Part shown: positions 1-61,361 of the stretch, piece after piece
Layout: every line of letters starts with the position of its first letter
Numbering within the stretch: the first letter of the stretch is position 1
Source: Shigella phage CWP003
Direction: 5' to 3' (one strand)
Length of the DNA: 64,000 nucleotides
Sequence record: OL856099
Notes under the pieces: generated by a model
Databases searched by the model: none
Seen by the model: the letters and a program-made list of their open reading frames with translations, nothing else
What the model was told of the DNA's origin: nothing
Translations under genes and position numbers: made by a program

Positions 1-327
1 AGGAATATGACGGTTGCTGTCATTATTTGGTTTAATAATGAGCATAAAAACGATTAGAAAGATGATGGCTGATATACTTAATTCAATCAGCGCGGCCTGA
101 GATATGGATTGATCTTCATGATACTGCTTTTGCATTTCTGCTTTCTTCTGAGCGCAAACTTCAGGCGATATATAATCGCCTTTTGAGTTGCCATAATAAA
201 TCTCGCCATTCTCAGAAATAAGTCTGCCGCAAATATCCGTTTCAGCCTTTGCGCTTGACATCATAATAACGGTGCCGATGATAGCCGCAATGGTCCAGAT
301 TAGCAGTTGCGATAAAGTGTTGTTCAT
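1..327 (-). CDS. Partial CDS (N-terminus in window, 3' end beyond window start); small membrane or secreted protein
   Basis: ATG at complement 327..325 preceded by AAAGAGG; open for 109 codons to the window edge by manual translation; hydrophobic N-terminal segment (LLIWTIAAIIGTVIMM) and a second hydrophobic stretch (AIIFLIVFMLII). Not in the ORF track because it has no stop in the window. Confidence 0.4.
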   Translation of the reverse strand, partial: MNNTLSQLLIWTIAAIIGTVIMMSSAKAETDICGRLISENGEIYYGNSKGDYISPEVCAQKKAEMQKQYHEDQSISQAALIELSISAIIFLIVFMLIIKPNNDSNRHIP

Positions 328-523
328 GATAACCTCTTTAAATTCCCTTCCCGATGTGGGAAGGGTGAATATTATTTTACGCGAAAGAATAAGCGCGTGC
401 CACACAGCGAGTCCCAACGGCCTTCACCATCCCATACCGACCCAATGCCAGCGGTGATTACACCAGCAGAATTGGCGGCATTGGCCCAGGCAAGTCGTTT
501 AAGCTTCCAACTGCACCAACGAT

Positions 524-787
524 TCACAGTTCGCCTCCAGACTTCAAAATTAATCCCGCATATATTATTGCCAGAGCTAAAGGCGCACCGTCGCCAGCCT
601 CTCTATTCTCTTTGATTTGAAGAGTATCTTTTAGGAATTGAAGTTGAACGTTAAACTCATTTTCGATTCCAAGCACAACAGCAAGTTCTTTTACAGAATC
701 TGCATATGCCTTGTCTAGCACTTCTTTTGGTAATGTTAAAGTCAATTCATTCGCCATTTTCTTTCCACTCCACAAATGTACTGCCAC
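524..787 (-). CDS. Hypothetical protein
   Basis: Track ORF; true start may be the internal Met (MANELT...). No recognised motif. Confidence 0.3.
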   Translation of the reverse strand: MAVHLWSGKKMANELTLTLPKEVLDKAYADSVKELAVVLGIENEFNVQLQFLKDTLQIKENREAGDGAPLALAIIYAGLILKSGGEL

Positions 788-968
788 TTGTTTCTCTATT
801 TAGCAGGTATCTGCCGCGCATTCCACGAAGGCTGAACTCAACCGTCGATGGATTAGATTTTGAAAGCCACATCACTTGACCGTCGAACGGTCCGCCAACG
901 CATGTGTATTTGGCCTTTGGCTCACTCCTTTTGGGCCGCTTTGCCCGCTCTTTGATTGATAGTCTCAT
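747..968 (-). CDS. Hypothetical protein
   Basis: Track ORF in a leftward tandem with neighbours. Confidence 0.3.
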   Translation of the reverse strand: MRLSIKERAKRPKRSEPKAKYTCVGGPFDGQVMWLSKSNPSTVEFSLRGMRGRYLLNRETSGSTFVEWKENGE

Positions 969-1183
969 CAGTCTTCACCTTGAGATTCAAGACAAGTAAG
1001 AACAAGCCACGTCATCGGAAGAATCAAAACCAGAGAAATAAGTGACCAAATGGACCAACACAAGATGACAGACTTGAATGTGTGAACGTCGCCAAACGCA
1101 GCAGTGAAACAAAATCCCATTACGAAAGCAATCGCTGTGGAGTGATTATCAATGGCTTTGATGGCGCGGTCGATGAGTTTCAT
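968..1183 (-). CDS. Small membrane protein (two predicted TM helices)
   Basis: Track ORF; hydrophobic stretches AIAFVMGFCFTAAF and LISLVLILPMTWLVL. Confidence 0.4.
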   Translation of the reverse strand: MKLIDRAIKAIDNHSTAIAFVMGFCFTAAFGDVHTFKSVILCWSIWSLISLVLILPMTWLVLTCLESQGED

Positions 1184-1331
1184 ATTACCTCCGGTTTTGA
1201 GTTAATATGATTATAATGCAGAATTTCAGAAAGGCAAACTTTTTGTGAATTTAAATTAAAAAAATGGCCAGAAATAATCTGGCCAAAAAGATCACCCTTT
1301 ATCCACTACTAAGCTGGAATCATAATTTTAC

Positions 1332-1361
1332 TTGATATAGCTGTCTCAAGCAAACTATAAT
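1332..1361 (+). promoter_or_regulatory. Sigma70-like promoter (TTGATA, 18 nt spacer, TATAAT) abutting the annotated terL ATG
   Basis: Read directly from sequence; the -10 ends 1 nt before ATG 1362. Confidence 0.3.
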
Positions 1362-2822
1362 ATGAATAAAATATTAACACATAATTGGAAAGTCATGTAC
1401 CAGTTGAATCCTGCTTTAAGAGAAGTCTGGAAGACGAAAGCGCGATACAAAGTCATATACGGCGGTCGTGCATCTTCCAAATCGCACGATGCCGCTGGTT
1501 TTGCTATTTATTTAGCGGCAAACTTCAAATTAAAATTCCTTTGCGTTCGACAATTCCAGAACAAGATTTCTGAATCAGTATATACGCTATTAAAAGATAA
1601 AATAGAGATTTCTGATTTTAAAGACGAGTTCAACTTATTAAAGAACTCTATCGAACACAAAAGAACAAAATCTGAATTTTTATTTTACGGTATCGCACGC
1701 AACGTTGACGAAATCAAATCAACAGAAGGTGTTGATGTTCTTTGGCTTGAAGAAGCGCATGCACTGACTGAAGAGCAATGGGACATTATTGAGCCGACAA
1801 TTCGTAAGGAAGGGTCCGAAATATGGATCATATTTAACCCTGATGAAGAGGCTGATTTCGTCTACCAGAACTTTGTCATGCGACCGCCGAAAAATGCCAT
1901 CGTTAAGAAGATTAACTGGCAGGACAATCCATTCTTGTCGCAAACAATGCTGGATGTTATCGCTGGCATGTATGAGCGCGACCCGAAAAAGGCAGAACAC
2001 GTTTATGGCGGAGTGCCGAAGACAGGCGGCGATAAGTCGGTCATCAACCGTGCATTCGTCAAAGCCGCGCTAAACCTCCACAAACACCCTACGCTGGGAT
2101 GGAGCTTGTCAGGGTCTAACCGTATAGGCTTCGACGTGGCGGACGACGGCGACGACTTAAACGCCACAGCATTTGTCACAGGCAACGTATTACGTGGCAT
2201 CAAGACATGGGAAGGTCTGGAAGATGAATTGCTTAAGTCCGCAAGCGGAGTCTGGAAAGACGCATTGACATTCGGCGCATCAATCACCTATGACGCCATC
2301 GGTGTTGGTGCATTTGCTGGTTCAAAATTTGATGAGCTTAATGAGTATGCAATCCATGAAAATCCAACATTCCCAAGAATCGAATTTAATGCGTTCAACG
2401 CGCAAGGTGCTGTTGATGATCCTGATGACGTTTTCCTTGAGTTACCACACGTTGAAATACTCAATAAAGACCATTTCGCAAACATAAAAGCGCAAAAATG
2501 GACTGAGATTGCCGAACGATTCAGAAAGACATATGAGTATGCGACAGGGCAGGCCGTATATCCGACTGATGAGTTGATTTCCATTGACACAGACGGCATC
2601 CCAGAACTTGGGATTCCTGCTTGGACTGCGGAAGAGATTGAGACGTTTCTTTTTGAGATGTCAGCGCCGCGCAAAGATACGTCTGTTCTTGGTAAGTTCA
2701 AAGTTGAATCGAAAAAAGATATGGCAAAGCGTGGAGTCAAATCGCCTAACAAAGCGGACGCAGCAATTATGGCATTGATGAAACCAATTGTTGCAGCATC
2801 CGGCTTCTTCTCTAACCTTTAA
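1362..2822 (+). CDS. terL: Terminase large subunit
   Basis: 486 aa; Walker A-like GGRASSKSHDA near the N-terminus, acidic ATPase-coupling region and C-terminal nuclease-like region typical of TerL; sits at the head of the structural module. Start may instead be Met12 (1395). Confidence 0.85.
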   Translation: MNKILTHNWKVMYQLNPALREVWKTKARYKVIYGGRASSKSHDAAGFAIYLAANFKLKFLCVRQFQNKISESVYTLLKDKIEISDFKDEFNLLKNSIEHKRTKSEFLFYGIARNVDEIKSTEGVDVLWLEEAHALTEEQWDIIEPTIRKEGSEIWIIFNPDEEADFVYQNFVMRPPKNAIVKKINWQDNPFLSQTMLDVIAGMYERDPKKAEHVYGGVPKTGGDKSVINRAFVKAALNLHKHPTLGWSLSGSNRIGFDVADDGDDLNATAFVTGNVLRGIKTWEGLEDELLKSASGVWKDALTFGASITYDAIGVGAFAGSKFDELNEYAIHENPTFPRIEFNAFNAQGAVDDPDDVFLELPHVEILNKDHFANIKAQKWTEIAERFRKTYEYATGQAVYPTDELISIDTDGIPELGIPAWTAEEIETFLFEMSAPRKDTSVLGKFKVESKKDMAKRGVKSPNKADAAIMALMKPIVAASGFFSNL

Positions 2823-2825
2823 CAA

Positions 2826-3065
2826 TTAAAGCATTCCGTGCTGAAGGTCGAGCTTTCTTGCGGCAAACGACCTGGCACGGAATCGCTTACCCGCCCTTAC
2901 TGCCTGTCGAATTTTCTTTTGCAAACACTTACGGTCAAAATCGTTGCGGTCGACGGCTTCGAGTAAATCGCGACGCAGTGCACCCAGTGTCGACTTTTCG
3001 GAGACTTCAACGCCCAGCGCGGCTGCAACATCTTTCAAAACATCGAGTTCGGTTAAAGTTCTCAT
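2826..3065 (-). CDS. Small basic protein with SAP/Rho-N-like helix motif
   Basis: 79 aa; LTELDVLKDVAAALGVEVSEKSTLGALRRDLL resembles SAP/Rho_N; lysine/arginine-rich C-terminus; overlaps the upstream gene by 4 nt. Confidence 0.45.
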   Translation of the reverse strand: MRTLTELDVLKDVAAALGVEVSEKSTLGALRRDLLEAVDRNDFDRKCLQKKIRQAVRAGKRFRARSFAARKLDLQHGML

Positions 3066-3478
3066 TTGATAATCCCCTTGATGTCCGATTCTGCCATAAA
3101 GATTGGAGTGCTGCCGCCAGGAACAATCGAGCGCGTGACCTTGTCAAACATATCGTTTTCTTCAACTTGAATACGATAAAATTTATTTTTGGATGAAGAT
3201 GGGCACAATCCCATAAATTTGCCGATGCCGCGAACGCATTCATCTTCAAAGTATACTGTTTCACCTTGAATGGAGTCGATGTCGTCTACTGGATAGACCT
3301 TGCGACCCAATAGCCACTCATCCAAAGTCGCCTGCAAGACGTTGCGCGCATCTAAAATCCACGGGTCAATAGTAGCACCTTCATATCGCGCAGCAGTGGC
3401 CTTTGCCAGTTCTTCATATTCGCATACGTTAACGACTTCGCCGTTGTGCAAGACGACAAATACAATTGTTGTGCTCAT
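3062..3478 (-). CDS. Hypothetical protein, first gene of a convergent two-gene cassette
   Basis: 138 aa track ORF on the opposite strand to flanking terL and portal; no recognised motif. Confidence 0.45.
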   Translation of the reverse strand: MSTTIVFVVLHNGEVVNVCEYEELAKATAARYEGATIDPWILDARNVLQATLDEWLLGRKVYPVDDIDSIQGETVYFEDECVRGIGKFMGLCPSSSKNKFYRIQVEENDMFDKVTRSIVPGGSTPIFMAESDIKGIIK

Positions 3479-3573
3479 TTCAATCTCCTTTCGTTTGGTT
3501 AACTAAAATATAACTCAAAATGATACAAAAGCAAAATATTTTATGAACTATTTATGATCACCATACATATCAT

Positions 3574-3602
3574 TTGCTTACAAACACATGAATATTTATA
3601 AT
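3574..3602 (+). promoter_or_regulatory. Sigma70-like promoter upstream of portal (TTGCTT, 17 nt spacer, TATAAT)
   Basis: Read from sequence in the divergent intergenic region 3479-3640. Confidence 0.4.
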
Positions 3603-3607
3603 ATAGA

Positions 3608-6016
3608 TTGATTCCCTTTCACTGTCAGGTGGCGTTAACAATGAAAATTCTTGGCATAAAACTCTGGGAGAAGACGCAACCAGAAGCCGAACCAGCGGAG
3701 ATGCCGCCAGGCGACCCATTGGCACCGTTTGAACGCCTTGAAAGGCGCGGCAGCGGTCAACGCTGGGAAAAGACTGAAAGCAATCGACCGACCTTTAAAA
3801 CGGTTGATGACTTCCCTTTATATGAGCCTGATATTAATGGCGATGGTGTTGCAATCATAAAAGGTCGTTCAGTCGATTCCGCAACAGTATCCAAAAAGGT
3901 TATGGATAATGCCTTAAAGAACATCAGTTCAGAAGGGCAAGTAAACCCATACACAGTACCTATTCAACTTCAAAACTGGTATTTGTCACAGTCATTCATC
4001 GGCTATCAAGCTTGTGCCATCATCGCACAGCATTGGCTGGTGAACAAGGCGTGTTCCATGGTAGGCCGCGATGCGGTCCGTAAAGGTTGGGAAGTAAAAT
4101 CCAGTTCTGAGTCAGAATTGTCAGTACAGGCAAGCGAACGCCTAAAGCAAATTGATAAAGAATTTAATATCAAAGAGCACTTAGTTGAAGCCGAACGATT
4201 CAAAAATATTTTTGGTATCCGCGTCATCATATTTGATGTGCGTAGCGATGACCCAGAATATTACAGCAAGCCTTTTAACATTGATGGCGTGACAAAGGGG
4301 TCTTATAAGGGAATCATTCAGGTTGACCCTTATTGGATGATGCCGTTTCTGACGTCTGAAAACACAGCAGACCCTGCATCACAGCACTTCTATGACCCAG
4401 AATATTGGGTAATCAGCGGACAACGTTATCATCGCAGCCACCTCATAATCTTGCGCAACGATGAGCCAGCTGATATTCTCAAGCCGACTTATATTTACGG
4501 CGGCATTCCTCTGACTCAGCAGATTTATGAACGCATCTATGCCGCTGAACGTACCGCCAACGAAGCGCCATTGCTGGCGATGTCCAAGCGTACAACGACG
4601 CTGCGGACCGACGTTGACAAGGCTATTGCCAATGAGCGGTCTTTTGCAGAACGTCTGATGATGTGGATCAAGTACCGCGACAACTATGCAGTCAAAGTGC
4701 TTGGCCAAAAAGAAGAGATGGACCAGTTTGACATCAACTTGTCAGACTTCGACAGCATCATCATGAACCAGTACCAGCTTGTGGCCGCAATCGCAAAAGT
4801 TCCGTCGACCAAACTGCTTGGGACTTCGCCAAAAGGCTTTAACGCCACTGGTGAATTCGAGATGGTCAGCTATCACGAAGAGTTGGAAACGTGCCAGCAG
4901 CATGACCTGACAAAAATTCTCGACCGCCATTACAAAATCCTTCTCAAATCAGAAGGGGTGAATGTCGATGTTAAGGTTGCATGGGAACCAGTTGGCTCAC
5001 TTACTGCTACTCAACTTGCAGAAATCAATGATAAGCGAGCCAACACTGGCAAAACTCTTATTGATGCTGGCGTCATTTCTCCTGATGAAGAGCGCGACCG
5101 CATCAAAGACGACAAAAACAGCGGCTACAACCGTCTGCCGGAAGACGCAGCAGAAGAAACCCCAGGGATGTCTCCAGAGAATATGGCATTGCTTGGCAAG
5201 TCTGCTGGTGAAGTCCTGCAAGGTAAGGCCGATATTGAACAGGCGAAAGCTGATGTCGTTAAGATGGGCGGCCAGTTCTATAGCGAAACAGGTATTATGC
5301 CAGAGGGTGCCGCGCGTGGTGAGTTGGCGGAAAACCCTGACAAAGCGCCTGTCGAAATCAACATGGACGATACCGATGATGAATCAAGCCATCAGGTTGA
5401 TGTCCTAACGCAGTTGAAAGAAGGGCTGGAGGGTATTGCGGATTACTACCTGAAAGAAGGTCAGGATGTGGATTTTGACCCTCAAAAAGATTCACGGTCG
5501 GTGCAACCGTCTACCCTTCCAAGCGTTAAAGGACACGTCGTCAACTTACGCCACAACGTGGGTAAAATGGACGCAGCATCATTACCTAAGATGAAGTTGC
5601 ACGGAATGATTCTTGGCATTGAGAATCCGCGAAACAGCATTCGTAGAGGAAACAGCCTTGACGGTGAATGGGCCGTGAAGATGCCGCACCACTACGGATT
5701 CATCAAGGGCACCAAGGGCGCAGACGGTGATGAAGTCGACTGTTTTGTGGGTCCAAATCTTAAGTCGCCGAAAGTCTTTATCGTGAACCAAAACGATAAC
5801 TACTCTGGCGAGTTTGATGAACACAAGTGTATGCTTGGATTCGATTCAGCAGAAGAAGCGAAAGAAGCTTATCAAGCATCATTTGGTAACGGTTGGAACG
5901 GATTCGACTCAATCCACGAATTAGATGTGAACTCATTCAAGGAGTGGTTGAAGGGTGATTGCTCTCAAGCATACGGAGCACTCAATAATCCTACTAATTC
6001 ACCGAAGCAAGGTTGA
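3608..6016 (+). CDS. Portal protein
   Basis: About 790-800 aa; position directly after terL and before a Mu F-like gene. Track start is TTG; a likelier start is ATG 3641 (MKILG) with AGGTGG upstream. Confidence 0.7.
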   Translation: MIPFHCQVALTMKILGIKLWEKTQPEAEPAEMPPGDPLAPFERLERRGSGQRWEKTESNRPTFKTVDDFPLYEPDINGDGVAIIKGRSVDSATVSKKVMDNALKNISSEGQVNPYTVPIQLQNWYLSQSFIGYQACAIIAQHWLVNKACSMVGRDAVRKGWEVKSSSESELSVQASERLKQIDKEFNIKEHLVEAERFKNIFGIRVIIFDVRSDDPEYYSKPFNIDGVTKGSYKGIIQVDPYWMMPFLTSENTADPASQHFYDPEYWVISGQRYHRSHLIILRNDEPADILKPTYIYGGIPLTQQIYERIYAAERTANEAPLLAMSKRTTTLRTDVDKAIANERSFAERLMMWIKYRDNYAVKVLGQKEEMDQFDINLSDFDSIIMNQYQLVAAIAKVPSTKLLGTSPKGFNATGEFEMVSYHEELETCQQHDLTKILDRHYKILLKSEGVNVDVKVAWEPVGSLTATQLAEINDKRANTGKTLIDAGVISPDEERDRIKDDKNSGYNRLPEDAAEETPGMSPENMALLGKSAGEVLQGKADIEQAKADVVKMGGQFYSETGIMPEGAARGELAENPDKAPVEINMDDTDDESSHQVDVLTQLKEGLEGIADYYLKEGQDVDFDPQKDSRSVQPSTLPSVKGHVVNLRHNVGKMDAASLPKMKLHGMILGIENPRNSIRRGNSLDGEWAVKMPHHYGFIKGTKGADGDEVDCFVGPNLKSPKVFIVNQNDNYSGEFDEHKCMLGFDSAEEAKEAYQASFGNGWNGFDSIHELDVNSFKEWLKGDCSQAYGALNNPTNSPKQG

Positions 6017-7952: not shown

Positions 7953-7966
7953 GGCAATGGATTGCC
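7953..7966. other. Perfect palindrome GGCAATGGATTGCC
   Basis: Seen in sequence downstream of the 6877..7797 operon; possible terminator stem or protein-binding site. Confidence 0.35.
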
Positions 7967-7988
7967 GCAGGATTTTACGCGTATAATG

Positions 7989-8256
7989 ACGTATCATCCG
8001 TATCAAGTAAGTAGTTGTTTTCAAAAGAATCTTACGGATGATACGGATGATACGCGTTGCCGCGATACTTTATAGGAATTCAAATAAATTAATTTAAAAT
8101 TATATATCTAATTTAATTTTATTTTTTTATAAACTCTTATATATGAAAAGTATCCGTATCATCCGTATCATCCGTAGCACACCAGTGATAGCGCGGCTTA
8201 TACACTGATACGGATAAAAATACGCCTCATTTTATCCGTATCATCCGTATCACACT
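7989..8256. repeat. Iteron locus 1: tandem and inverted 9-mers ATCCGTATC/GATACGGAT flanking an AT-rich core
   Basis: Seen directly: TATCATCCGTATCA (7991), CTTACGGATGATACGGATGATACG (8031), AT-rich 8080-8150, GTATCCGTATCATCCGTATCATCCGTAGC (8151), TGATACGGATAAAAATACG (8206), TTATCCGTATCATCCGTATCAC (8232). Confidence 0.65.
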
Positions 8257-8309
8257 AATTAAGGCGCGGCTATATCGGTTGTTATACATATTCAAACCAT
8301 AATTATTGT

Positions 8310-8338
8310 TTGCCTAAGTTTTTTTCATTAGATATAAT
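8310..8338 (+). promoter_or_regulatory. Sigma70-like promoter (TTGCCT, 17 nt spacer, TATAAT) for the scaffold/capsid operon
   Basis: Read from sequence about 25 nt upstream of ATG 8362. Confidence 0.45.
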
Positions 8339-8361
8339 ACACAATACTTATTTGAGGGTGG

Positions 8362-9780
8362 ATGCGAATGCAAACGGCACGCGAAATTGACAAAAATGGA
8401 TTCTTGACGATTGTGGGTTGTCCCATTTCGTCATTTGGCATTTTTGATTATTCTGCAGGTCAGGTTGGACTTGATGGTGATCCGAATCGCATCGTAAAAG
8501 TTTATCGCCCAGAGTCAGCGGTGAAAGACCCCGAAGCGATAGATTCATTCAAAAATATCCCTTTCATCGACAATCACGAAATGCTTTCTGGATTCGAAGG
8601 TGATGAGGATAACACAGCACCCGAAGAGTATGGCGTTGATGGCGTTCTAACTGGCAATGTTTATTATGACAAGCCATGGATGCGCGGCGACCTTAAAGTT
8701 TTTAGCCGTCGTCTGAAGAAAGCCATCGATTCTGGAAAGGTTGACTTGTCTTTGGGCTATGACTGTGAATTCATCATACAGTCTGGAGAGTTTGACGGGC
8801 AGCCGTATGAAGTGGTACAGACAACTCTTCGCGGCAACCACATTGCTCTCGTGGACGTTGGTCGAGTACCAGGTGCACGGGTGCTGGATGGTCGTTGCTT
8901 TGACCATCTTTGTTTGACGACTGTAACACCATCCAACGAGGATTTAGACATGCCAAAACCGTTAAAAGGTAAAGCGCGTGATAATGCTGTTGAACAGCTG
9001 AAATCACTGATCCCTGCGCTCGAACAATTTCTGAATGAAGAGAGCACCGAAGCTGCTCATCAGGACGAAGTTGAAGTGAAAGCAGAAGAGAAGGATTCAA
9101 CCGAAGAACGTGAAGAAGTGATGGTTGATCCAGAAGTTAAAGCAGAAGCTGAAGAGACTCCAGAAGGTGAAGAGAAGTTTGAAGTTGAATCTGAATCTCA
9201 CGCTGGCGGCGAGCTTCCGCAACTGATCAGCCAAATCGAAGCACTTATTGCAAAACTGAAAGGTGGCGCGGTAGGTGATGAAGAAGAAGTTGAAGCCGAA
9301 GTCAAAGACGAAGAAGTTGAAGTCAAGGCTGAAGATGTATCACCTTGCGACAAAGCTGAAGATGTGGTTAGCGGCCTGCAAAACAGCAACGTAAAGGGGG
9401 CTTCGGTCGAAAAAGATGACAAACCGACAAAAGCGGCGAAAGCGTCGCCAGGTCCAGCAAAAGGGGAACACTCAATGGCATCTGATTCAGCAGTTGCTGC
9501 TTTCTACGCTGATTCTGCTCGTAAGAATAGCCTCTACCAGCGCCTGTCTAAAGTTGTTGGTGCCTTTGATCATGCAACTATGGACTCCAAGTCCGTAGCG
9601 AAATATGGCGCTAAAAAGTTAGGCTTGAAGTGCGTTGATGGTGCTGAGTTTGACGTGGTGGATAATTATCTGCGCGGCGTTGAACACGGTCAAAAACAGC
9701 GTGTAGTCGCAAAACAAAAGGCCGCTGCGGATTCTGCAGCAACTGACGAAGCATTTGAAGCTTGGTTGAAAGGGGAATAA
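8362..9780 (+). CDS. Head scaffolding protein, possibly fused to an N-terminal protease-like domain
   Basis: 472 aa; globular N-terminal domain of about 200 aa followed by a highly acidic Glu/Lys/Ala-rich helical region; position between the F-like gene and the capsid gene. Confidence 0.55.
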   Translation: MRMQTAREIDKNGFLTIVGCPISSFGIFDYSAGQVGLDGDPNRIVKVYRPESAVKDPEAIDSFKNIPFIDNHEMLSGFEGDEDNTAPEEYGVDGVLTGNVYYDKPWMRGDLKVFSRRLKKAIDSGKVDLSLGYDCEFIIQSGEFDGQPYEVVQTTLRGNHIALVDVGRVPGARVLDGRCFDHLCLTTVTPSNEDLDMPKPLKGKARDNAVEQLKSLIPALEQFLNEESTEAAHQDEVEVKAEEKDSTEEREEVMVDPEVKAEAEETPEGEEKFEVESESHAGGELPQLISQIEALIAKLKGGAVGDEEEVEAEVKDEEVEVKAEDVSPCDKAEDVVSGLQNSNVKGASVEKDDKPTKAAKASPGPAKGEHSMASDSAVAAFYADSARKNSLYQRLSKVVGAFDHATMDSKSVAKYGAKKLGLKCVDGAEFDVVDNYLRGVEHGQKQRVVAKQKAAADSAATDEAFEAWLKGE

Positions 9781-47646: not shown

Positions 47647-48729
47647 ATGGCTAGTTTAAGAGAAGAAGCAAAAATAATCGAAGAGTTTTTGACGGAACTC
47701 CAAAGAGGCATTCCAGAAGATGAACGCGTCATGACCGTGTTTGCTCCTGAAGCAACAGTGCAGACTGACGAGCGCGGCAAAAAGATTAACAGCAGCTTCT
47801 GGCCTAAGCCTTGGAAGCTTGGCAAGCCGCTGATGCAACATCAGAACGGTTACGCCTGCATAAGTTCAATGCGTAAGTCTCCCAACCCAAAGACAGGCGA
47901 GATGCGATACTGGCGCACGGAATCGGCTTTCGGTCATGGCATGGCGATGATGGTCGACGACATCGGACACGGTAAAGGGTCCAAAGGCGATTTGGATTTG
48001 GAGTTCTTTTTCGAGCGCCTAAAACCAACCGTCATTGTCGAGACTTCGCCGAACAACCACCAGCTGTGGTACTTCTTTAAAGACCCGATTGACCATCTTA
48101 TCCAGTTCAAGGCATTTCTTGGGTCTTTCGTAAACATGGTACTCAAGAAGGGCGGCGACAACACGATTAAAGATGTGACGCGCGTTGGCCGTGTTCCTGG
48201 GTGTATCAACAACAAACGTGTGACTCACGACGGACCTTACAAATATGTCGATGAGAACGGCGACCCGTTCCGCTGCCGACTTGTTCATGCAGACTACTCT
48301 TTGCGCTACACAATCGAAGAGATTTGCCAAGCCTTCGGTTTCCACGTCGTTATGCCGCAAAAGCGTGAAATTCAAATCGACGTTGACGAATACAAATATG
48401 ACGCTGTTTGGTATAAGATAGCCCAGCAAATCCTTGCGCGCAATAAGATGGGCGAAGGGTCCGATGGCGATGTGGTTGAAAACATGTCAGGTAAATGCCG
48501 CATCATCTGTCCTTGGGGTGAAGAGCACACCAACGGCGACCCATACGGCGCTTATTTTCGCGGCCCAATCCCTGGCGCTGAACATGAATTCGTTTTCGGT
48601 TGCGCTCACGACTGCCACCGGAAAGGGGAAGGCAAGAAAGGATGGACCGCTTTTGTTGAAGCAGTAGTTATGCCTTATATTGAGAATCAACTTGATATGA
48701 TAAATCGTCGCGCAGGTGGCATAAAATAG
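47647..48729 (+). CDS. Primase-polymerase (archaeo-eukaryotic primase-like) with C-terminal zinc-binding region
   Basis: 360 aa; MMVDDIGHG (hhhDxD-like), SPNNHQLWYFF (sxH-like), C-terminal Cys/His cluster (CRIICPWGEEH...CAHDCH). From memory of AEP motifs. Confidence 0.5.
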   Translation: MASLREEAKIIEEFLTELQRGIPEDERVMTVFAPEATVQTDERGKKINSSFWPKPWKLGKPLMQHQNGYACISSMRKSPNPKTGEMRYWRTESAFGHGMAMMVDDIGHGKGSKGDLDLEFFFERLKPTVIVETSPNNHQLWYFFKDPIDHLIQFKAFLGSFVNMVLKKGGDNTIKDVTRVGRVPGCINNKRVTHDGPYKYVDENGDPFRCRLVHADYSLRYTIEEICQAFGFHVVMPQKREIQIDVDEYKYDAVWYKIAQQILARNKMGEGSDGDVVENMSGKCRIICPWGEEHTNGDPYGAYFRGPIPGAEHEFVFGCAHDCHRKGEGKKGWTAFVEAVVMPYIENQLDMINRRAGGIK

Positions 48730-50038: not shown

Positions 50039-51709
50039 ATGTCAATTGAACATGACAATCTTCCAGAGGATACAGGTGATGAATTTGGTGCAATCTTTGA
50101 CGAAATTCAAGACGCTGGTGTTTCAGAAGAAATGCAAGCGGCAGAGCAGCAAGGCACCAGAGCTAAAATCAGCCTACAGCACAAGGCTGTTGAGAAAGAT
50201 GCAGAGCGCATGGAATGCTACGGTGAAGAAGACTTGGTTGAAAGAGCACGTTTGCTCGCCTCACTTCAGGTAATCAAGTTCCCTCATTATAAACCGACGA
50301 AAGATGATTTTGTTCTTCAGGCGGACCGGACGAGTGACATGAACCGTTATGCGGTTTTCGACGCGTTGTTTGATAAGGGAAGCGGCATCGTCCCATTCCC
50401 TCACAAAGATACTTTTCGTGGACGCTTAGTCGACCATCGCGGCGAAACATTCACCGACCGGACGTTGGAAGTCACAGAGATAGTTGCCGCTGTCGATGCA
50501 GCAGGCCTGTCCAACCCAAACTCACGTCAGGTCGCTCAATCCTATAAGGAATGGGCCATGCGTTATCAGCGCGACGACCTGATGGACTTCTTCTACAAGA
50601 AGCTTCCTGAATGGGACGGTACTGCGCGCATTGAGAAATACCTTATCGAGCTATTCCGACCGTTCGATACAGAGTTAAACCGACAAATCGGTGTGTATTT
50701 TTGGCTATCGCTCTATAACCGCCTGACCAACCCTGGCTGTCAAGCGCCAATCTCCATCGCGCTCATCGGCGGCCAGAACGCAGGGAAGAGTTATTTTAGT
50801 AAGCTGCTTTGCGAAGCTATTATGAACGACCGCCACGCAACACCGATTCCGTTGAACTTGGCCGCGCAGAACTTCAACCCGTTCTTGCGAGCTATTACGG
50901 GTCGCTCAATTATCGCGAACGTTGGCGAGATGACGGGCTTTAAAAAGGCCGACATCGAAAACATGAAGGCATTCCTGACTAAGACGGAAGATGACCTGGA
51001 CTTCAAATTTGAAGACACGCAGGTCAAACCACGCCAGTGGATTGCTATCATGGACGGCAACGAATACGCAGGCATGCAGCGTGACGATACGGGCAACCGT
51101 CGTGTGTATCCTATCTTTGTTGGCCAACTCGCCGACAAGGACGGGCAACCGAACTGGTCAAAAGACTTCCAAGCTGACCTTTCCACTTTGAAAGAAGACG
51201 TTTGGCAACTGATGGCTGAGTGTGCTGCGTGGATGGAGAAGCACGGCGAAGCAGGTTACAACGCGTTTGTCGGTGAAACGTCTCGCATGCTTACTGAGTT
51301 CAGTAAGAACGAAATGGAACGCGCTCGCGGCGTTATCCGTGATGAGATGGTCGACAACGACCTTGTTGAAGTCGTCATTACCGCGCCTTATGACCGACAT
51401 CACAGCGGACGCTGGCACATCACCAGTGGTGCAATCGCTATGGGATTCAGAGCTAAGTGCGGCAAGTCGCCTTTCTCACGTACCCTTGCGCCGCACATGT
51501 CGAAGCTTGGATTTGAGCCTGCAACCTATCGCAACCAGCGCGGCTACTTTACGCCGCTGATTAAGAATGAAGCAGGGGAATACATTTCTGACTTGATGAC
51601 TATCTTAGCGTATCTTATTCGCGACGAGTCTGACCCTGAAGATATTGAATTCTTGAAGAAGGTTATTGAACGCAAACGTTCTTTAGGAAGAGATAAGGAT
51701 GAATTCTGA
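50039..51709 (+). CDS. VirE/D5-like P-loop NTPase (primase-associated helicase)
   Basis: 556 aa; central Walker A IGGQNAGKS with a downstream acidic Walker B-like stretch. Confidence 0.65.
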   Translation: MSIEHDNLPEDTGDEFGAIFDEIQDAGVSEEMQAAEQQGTRAKISLQHKAVEKDAERMECYGEEDLVERARLLASLQVIKFPHYKPTKDDFVLQADRTSDMNRYAVFDALFDKGSGIVPFPHKDTFRGRLVDHRGETFTDRTLEVTEIVAAVDAAGLSNPNSRQVAQSYKEWAMRYQRDDLMDFFYKKLPEWDGTARIEKYLIELFRPFDTELNRQIGVYFWLSLYNRLTNPGCQAPISIALIGGQNAGKSYFSKLLCEAIMNDRHATPIPLNLAAQNFNPFLRAITGRSIIANVGEMTGFKKADIENMKAFLTKTEDDLDFKFEDTQVKPRQWIAIMDGNEYAGMQRDDTGNRRVYPIFVGQLADKDGQPNWSKDFQADLSTLKEDVWQLMAECAAWMEKHGEAGYNAFVGETSRMLTEFSKNEMERARGVIRDEMVDNDLVEVVITAPYDRHHSGRWHITSGAIAMGFRAKCGKSPFSRTLAPHMSKLGFEPATYRNQRGYFTPLIKNEAGEYISDLMTILAYLIRDESDPEDIEFLKKVIERKRSLGRDKDEF

Positions 51710-52356
51710 TGAATAAAGCAATCAACATCGCTAAATTCTTTCAACATCTCGGTGAACTGAACAAAGAGAGTGACGTTCACGGAGAAGAAATGAACCGGAT
51801 GATTTCAACCGTGTTGCGTGGTTTTGGTTACGATAAGGACTCAATCACCTGTAAGCGCACGAAGCTTGTCGATGAGACATACCTTTACTACGTTGAATTG
51901 CGCGTAGGCAAAGATTTGATGATCATCGACCCTAAATTGGAAGGGGCGCACTGTTTTGGCGCTCACCCTCGTGCGAGTGAATTCAAGGGTCGCGGTCGCA
52001 ACCGACTCCAGAAGCTTGATGATGCAGGCGACCTGAACATCTCGATGTTCCTCAAAGAGTTCCTTGCTCTGCCGAAGGTTGCATCTTCAACGGGCCGTGA
52101 TGACCTGTGCAAGATTGGATTCAGAACTAAAGATTTGCGCAATGCGCTACGCAAGAAGGGATTTGTGCCTTCTTATGATAACGTCGCCGCGCTGATGGCT
52201 TCCATGGAGGAAGCTGAAGCAATGGACAAGGTGCGCGGCTATTTCCTGAATACAGGCTACACAATGTATGAGTGGCACACCAAAGGATTGACGGTCGCCG
52301 ACTTCATCTATTCATTAGAGCAGAAGTATGTACGCAATATGCAGGCCACAGGATAA
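51709..52356 (+). CDS. Hypothetical early protein
   Basis: Track ORF, overlapping the upstream stop. Confidence 0.45.
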   Translation: MNKAINIAKFFQHLGELNKESDVHGEEMNRMISTVLRGFGYDKDSITCKRTKLVDETYLYYVELRVGKDLMIIDPKLEGAHCFGAHPRASEFKGRGRNRLQKLDDAGDLNISMFLKEFLALPKVASSTGRDDLCKIGFRTKDLRNALRKKGFVPSYDNVAALMASMEEAEAMDKVRGYFLNTGYTMYEWHTKGLTVADFIYSLEQKYVRNMQATG

Positions 52357-52395
52357 TTATCATCAAAATATTTGCTTTTCTGACGAGGTGATATT

Positions 52396-52620
52396 ATGAT
52401 TAATTTAGACAGGATTGAGTTAGCACTTAGTACCTTAATCAAATATTACCAGTTTGCTTTTAAGGCTAGTTTATTTGGCTTGTTCAATCCTCATCAAGCA
52501 GCAAAGGCGCGAAGCAATGCCAACCGCCTGCGCTGCACTGGTATAGTCATCCACGACCGGATATTGACAGAGGGTAGATTCAGCCATGAATACACAAGGG
52601 AGAATAACAAAGCAACGTAG
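52396..52620 (+). CDS. Hypothetical small protein
   Basis: Track ORF; GAGGTGA RBS. Confidence 0.4.
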   Translation: MINLDRIELALSTLIKYYQFAFKASLFGLFNPHQAAKARSNANRLRCTGIVIHDRILTEGRFSHEYTRENNKAT

Positions 52621-52791
52621 AGCTTTACAAGTCCTCATCCACTACCTGACACGCCTTTATCCAACGGCGCACGAGCAGAATCCATCAACTGGTCACCTGT
52701 TTAAGCGCCGTAACCTTTCGTTGAAAACATTCGCTTTAATCCAATACGACCGCTACCTGGACGGGCGCTACTGTGGCCCGAAGGACTCACT

Positions 52792-53070
52792 ATGATTACT
52801 ACATACAAAGTGTTCTTTGTCAAGTGCACATCATCGATTGATGACCAGTTTACTGCTGGAAAGAATTATCCCGTGATTTCTGAGTCAAGACTAGATATAA
52901 TCTTGAACGATCATGAAATCTATGAGCCGATGCCAGCAACTGCGTTTGATGTTATCGGTCACGTTCGGATTAAGACGAATATTGAAACGATGCATGACCC
53001 GTTGTTCAAGAAGCAGATTAAGAATGCCATGCAAGACTTTTGCGCAGCAATGTTTAAATACTATAAGTGA
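52792..53070 (+). CDS. Hypothetical small protein
   Basis: Track ORF. Confidence 0.4.
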   Translation: MITTYKVFFVKCTSSIDDQFTAGKNYPVISESRLDIILNDHEIYEPMPATAFDVIGHVRIKTNIETMHDPLFKKQIKNAMQDFCAAMFKYYK

Positions 53071-53447
53071 GTTGAAGATGAGAAAGAAAACTCTTAAGGC
53101 TGGGGACCGCATCCGTTGGATGTCAGGACAGAATATGCGCGCAGGCACCATCCTTGAGCTGGATCAATACCTTACTGATTCGCGTGGTCGCAATCACTAT
53201 CGCGTTCGAATCGATACGGTAAAAGAAGATGACAAGTCACTGGTTGGTGAAGTGGTCATCGTTACTCCACGTCAAATTAAGGCGGCTTGCGAAGCATGAA
53301 TAAATTTCAGTTCAAAGATAACAAGATCAGTAAAGCAGACGCAATCAAGCAGCTTCGCCGCGTACTTGAAGCCAGCGGCCATACAAAAGAGCGTGCACGC
53401 GTCTTAGCCAAAGAACATTATAAACGTTTTGTGTCACAAATCAGAGG

Positions 53448-53801
53448 TTGACCATGGCTCATGTTAAAGATGAAACGCTGTATGGCGCAGAGATTAAGAA
53501 GCGCGTGCGTGAGATGGCTGAAGGCGGTACGTTGATACCGTCGCGAGTCCGCTGCGACCACGTGATTGGCGTGTCCGGTACGAAGGAGATGGGCGTGTTG
53601 GTAAAAGACATTCGCGTTGGCGATGTCATGGTCATCGACCGACAAGCGCGAGTTGTTATCCAGGTGCAACCGAACGATGATGAAGGATGTGTCCTATTGA
53701 AGCTGAAGAAGCTTTCATCCAGCCCAGCAAAGGCCGTCATCAAGAAGGTCTGGCCCGAAGGATTACGCAAACTCATTCGTCGACCAGTGGAGAATGCATA
53801 A
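53448..53801 (+). CDS. Hypothetical small protein
   Basis: Track ORF; the real start may be an internal ATG. Confidence 0.4.
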   Translation: MTMAHVKDETLYGAEIKKRVREMAEGGTLIPSRVRCDHVIGVSGTKEMGVLVKDIRVGDVMVIDRQARVVIQVQPNDDEGCVLLKLKKLSSSPAKAVIKKVWPEGLRKLIRRPVENA

Positions 53802-54079
53802 TGAATAAAGATACCTTCAACGAAAGATTGGCGAAATTTGAAAAAGAGCAAGGTGAAAGGCCGTTAAAAGTACGTTTGAATGTTGATAGAAATTACGGTT
53901 TGGACATTCAGACTTATAGCTTGTGGCTGGTAGGTCGTTCGAGCTTTGACGATGCATTAATAATGGGAGTTGACACGCTTTTCTTAGAAAGATTTAAAAG
54001 CAATAAAAAGGCTATCGATTGCTTATCACGATATGAAAAATGGCTTGTTAAGTATTATAAAGAACGGGAGAATGTATAA
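53801..54079 (+). CDS. Hypothetical small protein
   Basis: In frame with track ORF 53687..54079; start placed at the ATG overlapping the upstream stop. Confidence 0.4.
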   Translation: MNKDTFNERLAKFEKEQGERPLKVRLNVDRNYGLDIQTYSLWLVGRSSFDDALIMGVDTLFLERFKSNKKAIDCLSRYEKWLVKYYKERENV

Positions 54080-54315
54080 TGGAAGATTATATTAATTCTA
54101 TGTACATGGCATTCTATGTCGTGCAACTTCCCAATGGCGCGGTATTTTATGGCGAGTATACCTTTGACGTTCAATATGACGTCTCAGAGCGTACAGTGTT
54201 AACAAGGGAGTTGATTGCGGACCTTAAGGACGACATCAAGCGCGTCGCGCGGCAGCAGTTCAATTTGGATGACACCGTCATCGTTCGAATTACCGGAATA
54301 ACAGAGGTGCAGTGA
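54079..54315 (+). CDS. Hypothetical small protein
   Basis: Track ORF. Confidence 0.4.
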   Translation: MEDYINSMYMAFYVVQLPNGAVFYGEYTFDVQYDVSERTVLTRELIADLKDDIKRVARQQFNLDDTVIVRITGITEVQ

Positions 54316-54644
54316 TGACCCGTGATCAGATACTCGCCGCGCATGAGCGTGGGTTGATAAAGGAAGTGTGGAAGAAGGCCAATGCCTTTGCTGATTCTTA
54401 TTACTTCTTAAAGAAGTGCATCAAGCAAAACGCAAAGATGGATAACACTGTATTGACATTCAACCTTTTGTCTAACGGAGCGAAGCTTGATGCAATATGC
54501 GGTTGCAGAATTGCCAGTGTGATGTTTGAACGAGGTGCTCACAAAGACTCTTTCTTCTATCAATTCTCTCACCGGACGGGTGATACAAAGATAACAAGGA
54601 CGCGTGAAGAGCTGGAGATTGACCTACTCCACTATGTAAAATGA
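54312..54644 (+). CDS. Hypothetical small protein
   Basis: Track ORF, followed by a terminator. Confidence 0.45.
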   Translation: MMTRDQILAAHERGLIKEVWKKANAFADSYYFLKKCIKQNAKMDNTVLTFNLLSNGAKLDAICGCRIASVMFERGAHKDSFFYQFSHRTGDTKITRTREELEIDLLHYVK

Positions 54645-54650
54645 ATATCA

Positions 54651-54683
54651 AAAAGGTGAGCTAAATGCTTGCCTTTTCTTTTA
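54651..54683 (+). terminator. Intrinsic terminator (AAGGUGAGC stem, UAAAU loop, U-run), copy 1 of a repeated terminator-promoter cassette
   Basis: 9-bp stem with two G-U wobbles followed by TTTTCTTTT; near-identical copy at 56164. Confidence 0.55.
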
Positions 54684-54697
54684 TCAATACTTATACT
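54669..54697 (+). promoter_or_regulatory. Promoter overlapping the terminator (TTGCCT, 17 nt spacer, TATACT)
   Basis: -35 lies inside the terminator 3' stem; same TTGCCT -35 as the scaffold promoter at 8310. Confidence 0.4.
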
Positions 54698-54729
54698 CTT
54701 TTCATCAAGACTAACAAGCGAGGTGAATT

Positions 54730-54978
54730 ATGGAACGTTATATAGATGCAGAGTGCTTGATAAGTGCAGGTTTGAATGAGGCTGTAGAAGGAAGTAAATA
54801 TGCCATCTGTCAATCTGATTATCCGTACAAAGATACTTTTTGGATTGAATTTGGATCAAAAGGGAGTAAGCACCACGTCACTTATGACGTTTGGAAAGCA
54901 CCAAGCGGACTTTTTTACATTTTAAAACGTCATTGCCAGCCAGAGTCAGGCGCATTGGCCATATTCAAGGAGGTGTGA
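54730..54978 (+). CDS. Hypothetical small protein
   Basis: Track ORF with GAGGTGA RBS. Confidence 0.45.
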   Translation: MERYIDAECLISAGLNEAVEGSKYAICQSDYPYKDTFWIEFGSKGSKHHVTYDVWKAPSGLFYILKRHCQPESGALAIFKEV

Positions 54979-54980
54979 TT

Positions 54981-55298
54981 ATGATTTACTTAGGCATCGA
55001 CAAGGAACAAGACGAGCGGTTAGGAAGCGTATTAAACGTGGACTTAAACACATCTGTACACATCAAGCCTTGGCCAGAGGCGCACCCCGACGTAGTTGTA
55101 CCCGTTGCGCCTTGGGCGCGTTACGTTGCCATTGACAATGATGGACTTGTCCATTGTTACTCAGAAAAGCCGACATACTTCGAAAAGTATCACCAATGGC
55201 TTATGACTGGATGGGCATTGGTGCGCTGTTGCGGCGAAGTCGGTCTGGAAGGCTGGAGCTTCGAGGCCAGTGAATCGTGTGTCGAGGTGCAATTATGA
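54981..55298 (+). CDS. Hypothetical small protein
   Basis: Start ATG 54981 (AAGGAGGTG RBS) in frame with track ORF 54891..55298. Confidence 0.45.
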   Translation: MIYLGIDKEQDERLGSVLNVDLNTSVHIKPWPEAHPDVVVPVAPWARYVAIDNDGLVHCYSEKPTYFEKYHQWLMTGWALVRCCGEVGLEGWSFEASESCVEVQL

Positions 55299-55513
55299 AT
55301 GCCGCGCTGGGTAAGTTGTCTTTTAACAAGCGCAATGAGCTGCGCATGGTATCGCGCTTTCAACAAACGCATTTATCACTAATCAAGATTGCAAACAAGG
55401 CCTACTCTCTAAATTGTCCTGAAGAAGAATGGAAAGAATTGAATGAGCGTCGTAAACAATTACAAAAGGCTGCATTCAAGCTGCAGCAATATGCTATGGA
55501 GTATGCAAAATGA
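55295..55513 (+). CDS. Hypothetical small protein
   Basis: Start ATG 55295 in frame with track ORF 55277..55513. Confidence 0.4.
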   Translation: MNAALGKLSFNKRNELRMVSRFQQTHLSLIKIANKAYSLNCPEEEWKELNERRKQLQKAAFKLQQYAMEYAK

Positions 55514-56159: not shown

Positions 56160-56163
56160 TTCA

Positions 56164-56209: not shown

Positions 56210-56237
56210 TATTTCATCAAGCAAAGGAGAATTGATT

Positions 56238-60035: not shown

Positions 60036-60300
60036 AGAACACTGTATTGCGTGTTTTGAATAATGGGATGTGTACAATTGGTCGCTTTACGCGGCCTTTT
60101 GTTGTTGTTTGGGTCGTGTTTCGTGATTGAATAATTATGAGGCGATGTTTTATTTATTAATTGTGCGGAAATATTTAGAAATATATATAGACAGGATTGT
60201 TAATATTTTAATAGTGTATGGCTATCGGTCCGTGGTGTTTGTTAGGAATTATCTATGGATTGAAATTTTAGTGTCGTGAAACGTGGTGTTTGAACATATT

Positions 60301-60660
60301 TGATACGCGTAAAATACGGCTAAAAATTAAGCGTATCATGGCTGCAGGCCGCGCCGTTCCTGGATTCCTCTTTTCCAAATTGGTACACCCTTACGTCATG
60401 ATACGTCATGGTTTTTTATCCGTATCAGTGTACAGCCCTTGCCGCGCCTGGCTTGTACATTAATCTTACGGATGATACGGATAAAACTGGGCATCGTTAT
60501 ATATATAATTTGAAAAATTAATTAACTCCATTTTGAATTAATTTAAATTAATTTTTTTCTACATCCTCATACTTATGTTAATTTATATATAACGTATTAT
60601 CCGTAAGATATAAGTAAAAACAAAGACTTGCGGCAATACGGATGATACGTCATGATACGC
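60301..60660. repeat. Iteron locus 2: GATACGGAT/ATCCGTATC and GATACGTCATG repeats around an AT-rich core; shares a 21-mer with locus 1
   Basis: Seen directly: ACGTCATGATACGTCATGG, TTTTATCCGTATCAG, AATCTTACGGATGATACGGAT (identical to 8029-8049), AT-rich 60490-60590, TTATCCGTAAGAT, CAATACGGATGATACGTCATGATACGC. Confidence 0.65.
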
Positions 60661-60806
60661 TTCAACCAGCCAGTAGCGGCTAAGTCATTGATTTGCATAA
60701 CAAGCGGCGAAAGGGATGGACTTCTTTTATACGTATCAAACAGTACACCACGCACCACGGTCCGATATTCATTCAGCACTATGATTTATGTACGTTTACA
60801 GCCAAT

Positions 60807-60887: not shown

Positions 60888-61361
60888 ATGAGTCAAGATT
60901 ATGTAGCAATGCCTGAAGACTTTGAAGACCCGCGATTTGCAGAGCATAATCAGGCATTATTCGATGAGTTCATCGACCTTGTTATTCAGGGCCATGACAT
61001 GCGCGCAGCTTTTGCACTAGTATTTGGCATGGAGGTTGCGACCGATAACTACACTGGCCAGCGAATCCTGTGCACTCAGCGCAATCCGTACTACAAGATG
61101 CGCTACAAAAAGCGTATGGAAGAGATGCCATTGAAGGAATTGTGGAGCGTAAAGAGTTCCATTCACAATTTAGTGAAGCTTGTGCGTGATCCAGAAGTCG
61201 CAGCATCAGCCAAGCTTAATGCCATTCGTGAACTGAATATCATCTACGGCATTACGATGATTGATGAAAACGGCAATAGTAAAATGGGCCGTTCCATGGA
61301 TGATTTCTACAAGGATTTTGGAGAGGCGGCCAAAGAGGGTGAGCAATTCTCCCGCCACTAG
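60888..61361 (+). CDS. Small helical DNA-binding-like protein (possible regulator or small terminase-like protein)
   Basis: 157 aa from ATG 60888 in frame with track ORF 60693..61361; central stretch IDLVIQGHDMRAAFALVFGMEVATDNYTGQRIL reads as an HTH-like segment. Functional call speculative. Confidence 0.4.
   Translation: MSQDYVAMPEDFEDPRFAEHNQALFDEFIDLVIQGHDMRAAFALVFGMEVATDNYTGQRILCTQRNPYYKMRYKKRMEEMPLKELWSVKSSIHNLVKLVRDPEVAASAKLNAIRELNIIYGITMIDENGNSKMGRSMDDFYKDFGEAAKEGEQFSRH

Follow-up and report, generated by a model that had tools for sequence, protein, structure and literature searches.

Why does a virulent phage keep, just ahead of its head genes, a stretch of non-coding DNA filled with short repeats in both orientations around an AT-rich centre? 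The question is posed by positions 7953–8340, here called locus 1, of a 64,000-nucleotide stretch of DNA from Shigella phage CWP003 (record OL856099). This whole stretch is referred to as the window, and all coordinates are those of the window. A first-pass annotation had proposed either an origin of replication or a multi-site binding platform. The second description was strongly supported by the repeat statistics, by conservation in the genus, by a paralogous copy at 60280–60760 (locus 2) and by the same architecture, built from clade-specific words, in three other clades. The first proposal is the best-supported mechanism, as a Rep homologue is encoded and the layout is that of the origins of staphylococcal pathogenicity islands (SaPIs). 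With about even confidence, locus 1 is read here as an iteron-type replication origin of the SaPI kind, which would be the internal twin of an origin-like module that hosts the packaging cut. The layout agreed with this reading, and a serious rival, a role in packaging, came from locus 2.

The window was assigned to the genus Wifcevirus, which is of the virulent myovirus type, has genomes of about 68 kb and stands with Pbunavirus in the Lindbergviridae. About 3 kb around locus 1 were 99% identical to Escherichia phage WFH and 94–98% identical to 27 other Wifcevirus records. Structural genes occupied the plus strand at about 1.4–30 kb, followed by minus-strand replication genes at 30–47.5 kb and a second plus-strand block at 47.6–60 kb. 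The distance from locus 1 to locus 2 was 15.2 kb one way and 52 kb the other way round the genome.

Repeat Words and AT-Rich Core of Locus 1

The exact 9-mer GATACGGAT was found nine times in the window compared with 0.31 expected, and none of 100 shuffles reached nine. Seven copies were in locus 1, with starts at 7996, 8040, 8152, 8161, 8207, 8234, and 8243, and the only other exact copies in the window, at 60418 and 60474, were both in locus 2. When up to two mismatches were allowed, ten sites (seven exact and three near) were counted in 7953–8340, where a rate of about 146 per 64 kb for the whole window would give about 0.9. This was in agreement with the at least nine copies in both orientations described in the first-pass annotation. 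Moreover, locus 1 held further degenerate units beyond these ten sites. The features of locus 1 were as follows.

7964..7968, GCCGC box in left-side orientation, with a second copy at 8059–8063
7978..8004, minus strand, left outer iteron set of three 9-bp-phased GATACG-type units, CGCGTATAA, TGACGTATC and ATCCGTATC (the last exact)
8031..8057, plus strand, left inner iteron set, a 9-bp tandem of CTTACGGAT GATACGGAT GATACGCGT that faces the core
8066..8150, no strand, AT-rich core of 85 bp with 10.6% GC (window mean 46.2%), putative DNA-unwinding region
8152..8178, minus strand, right inner iteron set, a 9-bp tandem of ATCCGTATC ATCCGTATC ATCCGTAGC that faces the core
8193..8197, GCGGC box in right-side orientation, with a second copy at 8266–8270
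8207..8251, mixed strands, right outer iteron set: GATACGGAT (plus, 8207), an ATACGCC variant (about 8220) and ATCCGTATC ATCCGTATC (minus, 8234–8251)
8282..8297, TTATACATATTCAAAC box at the right edge of the paralogous stretch, with the locus 2 counterpart TTATACGTATCAAAC at 60727–60741
8310..8338, plus strand, near-consensus sigma-70-type promoter TTGCCT-17-TATAAT, which adjoins the repeat module and lies outside it

The triple tandem with an exact 9-bp period noted earlier was recovered at 8152–8178, where the third unit has one mismatch. It was mirrored across the core at 8031–8057, and a third triple was present at 7978–8004. The facing triples contain a perfect 22-nt inverted repeat (8033–8054 and 8155–8176) with 100 nt between its arms. 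As a single strand, this region had a predicted fold of −31.9 kcal/mol (z = −7.8). The AT-rich core was likewise present as described, and its length of 85 bp was somewhat longer than the roughly 70 bp given before. Further, the core contains TAATTTAAnTTnATTTTTTT, which is common to the core of locus 2.

Locus 1 was non-coding, as had been claimed, with no open reading frame (ORF) of at least 40 aa between 8076 and 8347. The array had also been placed just upstream of the scaffold/capsid promoter, and the promoter at 8310–8338 does sit between the repeats and the head genes. It precedes the head protease, scaffold and capsid operon, the first gene of which is 8362–9780.

Conservation within Wifcevirus

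Variation was counted by alignment column across seven Wifcevirus genomes. The core and right arm varied at 10 of 236 columns, compared with 39 of 473 third codon positions in the adjacent protease gene. The core alone varied at 3 of 85 columns, and the promoter and leader (8301–8361) at none of 61. The repeats were thus kept in relatives. Two phages differed by defined changes in single units. Phage Bas101 was without exactly one 9-bp unit of the left inner triple (aligned with window 8035–8043), indicating that iteron copy number varies by whole units. In phage Bas99, the third right-hand unit was an exact ATCCGTATC. The array at locus 1 is real, conserved and under selection, and is very probably functional.

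Locus 2 and the Genome End

Locus 1 and locus 2 could be aligned over about 400 columns, and both were non-coding. The order common to the twins was TCTTACGGATGATACGGAT, the AT-rich core with TAATTTAAnTTnATTTTTTT, inverted CGTATnATCCGTA, ATACGGAT...ATACGC, the GCGGC boxes, and TTATACrTAT(T)CAAAC. The features of locus 2 were as follows.

60280..60760, no strand, paralogous twin module with about 11 GATACG-type words and an AT-rich core at 60490–60591 (16.7% GC)
60348 and 60441, GCCGC boxes; 60630, 60676, and 60704, GCGGC boxes
60529..60530, left genome end as read from relatives, which is the left boundary of a direct terminal repeat of about 3.7 kb, in the context AATTAACTCC|ATTTTGAA

The homologous base of 60530, at ATTTT(G/A)AA, is the first base of five linear records (WFH, WFC, Ro157lw, SP13, and Mansfield) from at least three groups, and the Mansfield record was opened at the boundary given by PhageTerm. 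A terminal repeat of about 3.7 kb was reported for WFC and WFH by Korf et al. In agreement with that, WFH bases 1–3701 equal its bases 67583–71283, and WFH 1–3471 aligns to window 60530–64000. Since the start of related records falls mid-core in locus 2, this repeat probably includes everything in the window from 60530 onwards. The left end is 47 nt past the left inner words, about 60 nt before the right inner words, and 358 nt upstream of the small terminase gene. The right boundary of the repeat falls about 230 nt past the end of the window, and no words were present there in WFH and Mansfield.

Locus 2 therefore has the properties of a virion end in relatives. Not one of the 28 Wifcevirus records has its start at locus 1, and PhageTerm reported terminal-repeat boundaries only. 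The cut context AATTAACTCC|ATTTTGAA occurred once in the window, in locus 2, and was absent from locus 1. It was kept in a sister lineage in which the Rep-like protein is 75% identical.

The DNA left of the cut was present in Wifcevirus as two strongly diverged alleles, whose common islands were a word, GCCGCG, the left inner words and the cut context. Window 60240–60465 carries the WFC-type allele despite 99% WFH-like sequence elsewhere. The left arm of the WFH-type allele (GATGATACGCGTCGCCGCTATACTTTATA) resembles the left arm of locus 1, a likeness which suggests exchange between the twins.

In addition, GT-rich (GGTGG/GTGG) left and CA-rich (CCACC) right flanks were seen only at the terminus-bearing module, in the window at 60100–60300 and 60740–60770. 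Tandem repeats in the flanks were a 39-bp unit in two copies in Pseudomonas phage E217 and the 11-bp ACAACCCCAGA in four copies in Xanthomonas phage XcP1. GT-rich DNA was also found at the right terminal-repeat boundary in WFH, Mansfield and Serratia phage MTx. These flanks may be a packaging-specific part.

The Same Arrangement in Other Clades

The twin arrangement was found in four clades, namely Wifcevirus, Myosmarvirus, Pbunavirus and one uncultivated lineage, each with its own word of 8–9 bp. The words were GATACGGAT in Wifcevirus, ACTTTTCG in MTx, GTAATTTGG in E217 and GATAGTTGG in the uncultivated lineage. In MTx (Myosmarvirus), the protease of which is 54% identical, a 450-bp non-coding stretch lies upstream of the head protease gene. 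The second stretch of MTx spans the record junction, and the left end given by PhageTerm falls within it. The two stretches align mutually and contain ACTTTTCG/CACTTTT in an 8-bp tandem triple. E217 (Pbunavirus) has the same pair of modules, and a 69-kb uncultivated contig has the pair as well. Furthermore, a fixed read end was used to open the record of the Pbunavirus Ab27. This start falls inside the core of the equivalent module, and the most AT-rich stretch follows about 45 nt later.

The regions upstream of the terminase and protease genes in the four clades were compared all against all. Significant similarity was detected within clades and none between clades, which suggests that both copies track one clade-specific reader. 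Together with the clade-specific words, this argues for a phage-encoded reader over host DnaA.

One element was common to all four clades. In eight modules, GCCGC stood left of the core 18 times and GCGGC right of it 25 times, with 1 exception. The fuller forms shared by the four clades were (TT)GCCGC(G) on the left and (C)GCGGC(A/T) on the right. Enrichment of GCGGC by count was weak in view of the frequency of the pentamer (4.6 per kb), and only the orientation pattern is informative for this reason. The boxes may make up a conserved contact of their own, apart from the clade-specific words.

The phage XcP1 had a single module, and none was present upstream of its protease gene. This module is separated from the small terminase gene by 2.5 kb and seven genes and contains the only windows of that genome below 30% GC over 80 nt. 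In MTx, E217, XcP1 and the uncultivated lineage, about 80–230 nt separate the rep-like stop codon from the start of the sister module, an arrangement also seen in SaPIs.

Candidate Readers of the Words

Two phage products were left standing as candidate binders, the VirE/VapE-like product and the product of the gene at 60888.

50039..51709, plus strand, gene for a SaPI-Rep-like self-loading helicase (VapE-like) of 556 aa, PF05272, favoured candidate initiator
60888..61361, plus strand, small terminase gene directly downstream of locus 2, candidate reader, matching the E217 small terminase (PDB 7UXE) with E = 9e-33

The Rep-like protein matched SaPI1 Rep1 (PDB 7PDS) by sequence with E = 4e-11. 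Its AlphaFold model had a predicted local distance difference test score of 87 and a predicted template modelling (TM) score of 0.79. The best match of the model among PDB entries in Foldseek was again 7PDS (E = 2.8e-16), which was nearly full length over about 480 columns with a target-normalised TM score of 0.58–0.61. The next matches were the NrS-1 helicase, SaPI5 PriRep and the poxvirus D5/E5 helicases. Roughly 200 Rep homologues were found on contigs with a length of about 70 kb. The C-terminus of the model is a helix-strand-helix-helix-strand-strand unit, which is predicted to be winged-helix-like, and the C-terminal domain was placed at about residues 430–556. Moreover, in a comparison of three genera, the protein diverged most in its C-terminal third. 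The Rep-like protein is thus the favoured candidate for the reader of the iterons.

A separate gene for a RepB-type primase (PF16793) was found at 47647–48729, 1.3 kb upstream of the Rep-like gene, and the two echo the primase-plus-Rep pair of SaPIs. At 51709–60035, the space that separates the rep-like gene and locus 2 is taken up by about 25 small plus-strand ORFs, mostly without family matches. This block was seen in Wifcevirus and the sister lineage, and in MTx, E217 and XcP1 the module comes directly after the rep-like gene.

The homologue of the small terminase in Mansfield is annotated as such. No Pfam matches were obtained for the small terminase of the window or for the small neighbouring ORFs. 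This small terminase belongs to a PHROG of unknown function and lies about 58 kb from the large terminase gene (1362–2822) on the window map. The small and large terminase genes of E217 were likewise reported to be far apart. The putative recognition-helix region of the small terminase was variable between genera.

Gene adjacency did not separate the two candidates, as most clades have the rep-like gene, the module and the small terminase gene in an unbroken row. In XcP1 the module is separated from the small terminase gene by additional genes, and in Wifcevirus from the rep-like gene. The sister lineage did not separate them either: with Rep at 75% and the small terminase at 70% identity, its words were still of the GATACG type and both candidate DNA-reading regions were conserved. 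A host protein is unlikely to read the words because these differ between enterobacterial and Pseudomonas phages and because neither module has a canonical DnaA box.

Comparison with Known Systems

Origins of SaPIs contain 6–12 short iterons directly downstream of rep around an AT-rich centre, with at least two iterons per side in opposite directions, and are read by the C-terminal winged helix of Rep (Qiao et al. 2022, PMC9371898). The type is further defined by specific binding of Rep to the iterons, ATP-independent melting of the AT-rich region, and replication from the locus. By its sequence layout, locus 1 appeared to agree with the rule in every part except position. It has the ten sites and additional degenerate units, of 9 bp and not 5–6 nt. 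Its core of 10.6% GC lies between three words on the plus strand (8031–8057) and three on the minus strand (8152–8178). A Rep-family initiator is encoded, as indicated by PF05272 and by the match to 7PDS in sequence and fold, and its C-terminal winged helix is predicted. The position directly downstream of rep was not found here, but it was found for the sister module in MTx, E217, XcP1 and the uncultivated lineage.

Compared with the origins of SaPIs and other phage-inducible chromosomal islands (SaPI1, SaPIbov1, and SaPI5), locus 1 has the same two iteron sets around an AT-rich region and the same encoded Rep-family helicase. The specificity is lineage-specific in both, and in most related clades the module comes just after the rep stop codon. 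It was different in that the carrier is a virulent 68-kb myovirus and not a satellite, with two copies per genome. In addition, the phage has the family-wide GCCGC/GCGGC box flanking the words, and its sister copy holds the genome terminus.

Two loci in one genome are known from other phages. Phage P4 has one short iteron, present in both orientations, at ori as well as at crr. Its alpha primase-helicase binds the two loci, and crr is needed as a helper of the single origin, which is a few kb away. Locus 1 and locus 2 likewise share an iteron in both orientations, with a putative phage reader. However, they are 15.2 kb apart and each is a complete dyad with its own core, and the relative XcP1 manages with one. 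The distant origins oriL and oriR of the Bacillus phage SPP1 have common binding boxes of the initiator G38P next to an AT-rich stretch. The likeness lies in two far-apart sites with common boxes beside an AT-rich stretch in a virulent phage. The SPP1 initiator, G38P, belongs to a different family, and the pac cut of SPP1 is at neither of the two origins.

Packaging sites offer another comparison. In the pac site of phage P1, repeated short elements flank the cut segment. In SPP1, terminase-binding repeats flank the central cut segment (pacL-pacC-pacR; review PMC9611059). Locus 2 resembles both, with repeats on both sides of the cut segment next to the small terminase gene, while locus 1 has no sign of cutting and no cut box. 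Phage T7 has a promoter and AT-rich module both at its internal primary origin (15%) and at phiOL/phiOR near the ends, where it takes part in concatemer processing. Here too, one type of module is internal (about 23% along, compared with 15% in T7) and present at the terminal-repeat region, but the T7 modules have RNA polymerase promoters rather than iterons with a Rep-type helicase. Locus 1 is best filed with the Rep-iteron origins, with an unusual duplication and a second copy at the packaging cut.

Proposed Mechanism and Rival Explanations

According to the favoured mechanism, the Rep-like self-loading helicase (50039–51709) would read the GATACG-type 9-mers via its C-terminal winged helix and assemble on the two inward-pointing iteron sets that flank the 85-bp core. 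It would then melt the core and load itself, after which the phage primases and the DnaE-type polymerase would begin synthesis. Locus 1 would be the internal copy of a duplicated module. Locus 2 would keep the ancestral place between the rep-like and small terminase genes and would additionally bear the specific cut box where the left genome end, that is, the terminal-repeat boundary, is made. We infer three elements of this mechanism: Rep as the reader, the melting of the core, and the start of replication at locus 1. As the cut context is absent from locus 1, the parts common to the twins (iterons, AT-rich core, and GC boxes) probably serve something other than the cut. The better words of locus 1 (seven exact compared with two in locus 2), and the fact that no related record starts there, also favour a role for Rep.

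Several observations weigh against this mechanism. The distance from the rep-like gene is 42 kb for locus 1 and 8.6 kb, on the downstream side, for locus 2, so the SaPI rule that the origin lies immediately downstream of rep fails for both Wifcevirus copies. The genome end falls in mid-core of the sister module in Wifcevirus and MTx, and a fixed read end does so in the Pbunavirus Ab27. Such a central end is how a pac site with flanking small-terminase sites would look, and a pure origin model does not predict it. The other constant neighbour of the module is the small terminase gene. Furthermore, the words are of 8–9 bp, compared with 5–6 nt for SaPI iterons. The core of the uncultivated clade was not AT-rich, which weakens the unwinding-element argument as a general rule. 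Finally, cumulative GC skew gave no origin signal in the window and followed gene orientation (up at 0–30 kb, down at 30–47 kb, and up at 47–61 kb).

Because the genome end lies in locus 2 and the small terminase gene adjoins it, a packaging role for the common repeats is the most serious rival, although we consider it clearly less probable than an origin. The repeats would then be a binding platform for the small-terminase ring. Locus 2 would be a pac site with arms flanking the cut, and locus 1 a second, uncut terminase site, which might form a pair with locus 2, along the lines of the pac synapsis of twin rings proposed for T4, or might couple head-gene expression with packaging. Besides the central left end in five Wifcevirus records and MTx and the fixed read end in the Pbunavirus module, the small terminase gene is directly downstream of the module in four of five clades. 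The variation of its recognition-helix region between genera would suit clade-specific words, and the tandem spacing of 8–9 bp is, by our estimate, close to the span of neighbouring subunits in a decameric ring. Reports on the E217 protein point both ways (review PMC9611059): it is reported to form higher-order assemblies, but its binding to DNA in vitro was not appreciable, and the same review describes its pac site as not known. Moreover, the XcP1 module adjoins the rep-like gene and not the small terminase gene, and locus 1 is the start of no Wifcevirus record and does not have the conserved cut box. Inward-pointing words on both sides of an AT-rich centre are the stated hallmark of Rep-type origins, and a Rep homologue with a predicted winged helix is encoded. 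These points argue for the Rep-read origin over the terminase platform.

The two roles may also be combined, in that Rep would load at both modules as origins and packaging would start at one of them. In one such scheme, which we regard as improbable, both modules are Rep-loaded origins in a coupled replication-packaging device. The terminal copy would fire rightward through the 3.7-kb repeat and duplicate it where the terminase cuts the opened core. As a variant, the decameric small terminase would bridge the internal and terminal copies to license packaging. T7 solves the duplication of its terminal repeat with a nick or hairpin, and the coupled device, if true, would be an origin-driven answer to the same problem. 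Either form, if true, would be a single clade-specific DNA code for replication and packaging across a family of therapeutic phages.

Also improbable is an array of operator or enhancer sites, through which a phage regulator of transcription would time head and packaging gene expression from the strong promoters downstream of the modules. Near-consensus promoters do follow both modules (8310–8338 and 60807–60853), and a putative sigma-70 promoter was placed in the equivalent Pbunavirus core by earlier authors (Garbe 2010, PMC3008698). In addition, phage 14-1 has a second, non-sigma-70 class of promoters, which may need a phage factor (PMC10914365). However, the array spans about 300 bp and ends 60–250 bp upstream of the promoters, and about 16 sites around a 100-bp core are far above the usual needs of an operator. 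The core of locus 1 had no convincing promoter, with a weak 9/12 match at 8143–8171. The single module of XcP1 is not upstream of the head operon, the XcP1 head operon has no module, and no candidate regulator was identified.

Least probable by far is a host-DnaA-dependent origin with the 9-mers as degenerate DnaA boxes: TTATCCGTA and TTATCCACA differ at two positions and TCATCCGTA is said to fit the relaxed DnaA-box consensus of Schaefer and Messer (1991), but the canonical TTATNCACA occurred once in the window (41336) and in neither module, and an initiator-like helicase is encoded by the phage itself. In the Serratia and Pseudomonas phage relatives, the same layout is built from unrelated words (ACTTTTCG and GTAATTTGG), although the specificity of DnaA is conserved across these hosts. 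The resemblance to the DnaA box noted in the first-pass annotation was therefore not upheld.

Relation to Previous Studies

AT-rich boxes and conserved intergenic motifs had been described in Pbunavirus papers of 2009–2010, with no clear function assigned to them (Garbe 2010, PMC3008698). More recently, a Pbunavirus paper of 2025 inferred origins from GC skew and listed contradictory terminus reports. In a literature search that took in only a minority of subscription journals, no description of twin modules, clade-specific words, or a link to a Rep-like protein or the genome end was found.

For therapy and biocontrol, Wifcevirus phages and their Pbunavirus relatives belong to the group most often used or suggested, and published accounts of their genome ends are contradictory. 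The analysis gave two short candidate cis-elements per genome, a named candidate initiator and a clear rival reader, the small terminase. If the favoured mechanism is true, the Rep, iteron and self-loading-helicase type of origin extends from satellites to a family of virulent myoviruses, and the conserved intergenic motifs noted since 2009–2010 are explained. It would also show phage engineers which non-coding segments to keep in rebuilt or minimised genomes. Assembly in vitro and rebooting have been published for phage vB_Eco4M-7 (PMC11074155). The coincidence of an origin-like module with a packaging cut in three genera is worth an experiment.

Minor Observations

The record of phage kaset annotates two small ORFs in the locus. 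Other annotators left it non-coding, and this candidate was rejected, as no ORF of at least 40 aa is present within 8076–8347. An RNA gene at locus 1 was rejected too: Rfam scores were at most 32 bits compared with thresholds of 50–100, and the sub-threshold matches were driven by the long inverted repeat. The IHF consensus was absent from locus 1 and occurred once in locus 2 (60681–60693); the window had 8 compared with 3.9 expected, which was not significant.

Phage WFH carries one extra exact GATACGGAT at 8297–8305, homologous to window 235–243, where the window has GAAACGGAT. It was rejected as a third module, being a lone copy in a likely small minus-strand ORF with no module around it.

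Ahead of the small terminase gene, 60807–60853 contains two overlapping near-consensus sigma-70-type promoters, TTGAAC-17-TATAAT and TTGAAT-17-TATAAT. These are about 300 nt inside the left genome end. Should that end be the first to enter the cell, this would be unusual as the first unit to be transcribed.

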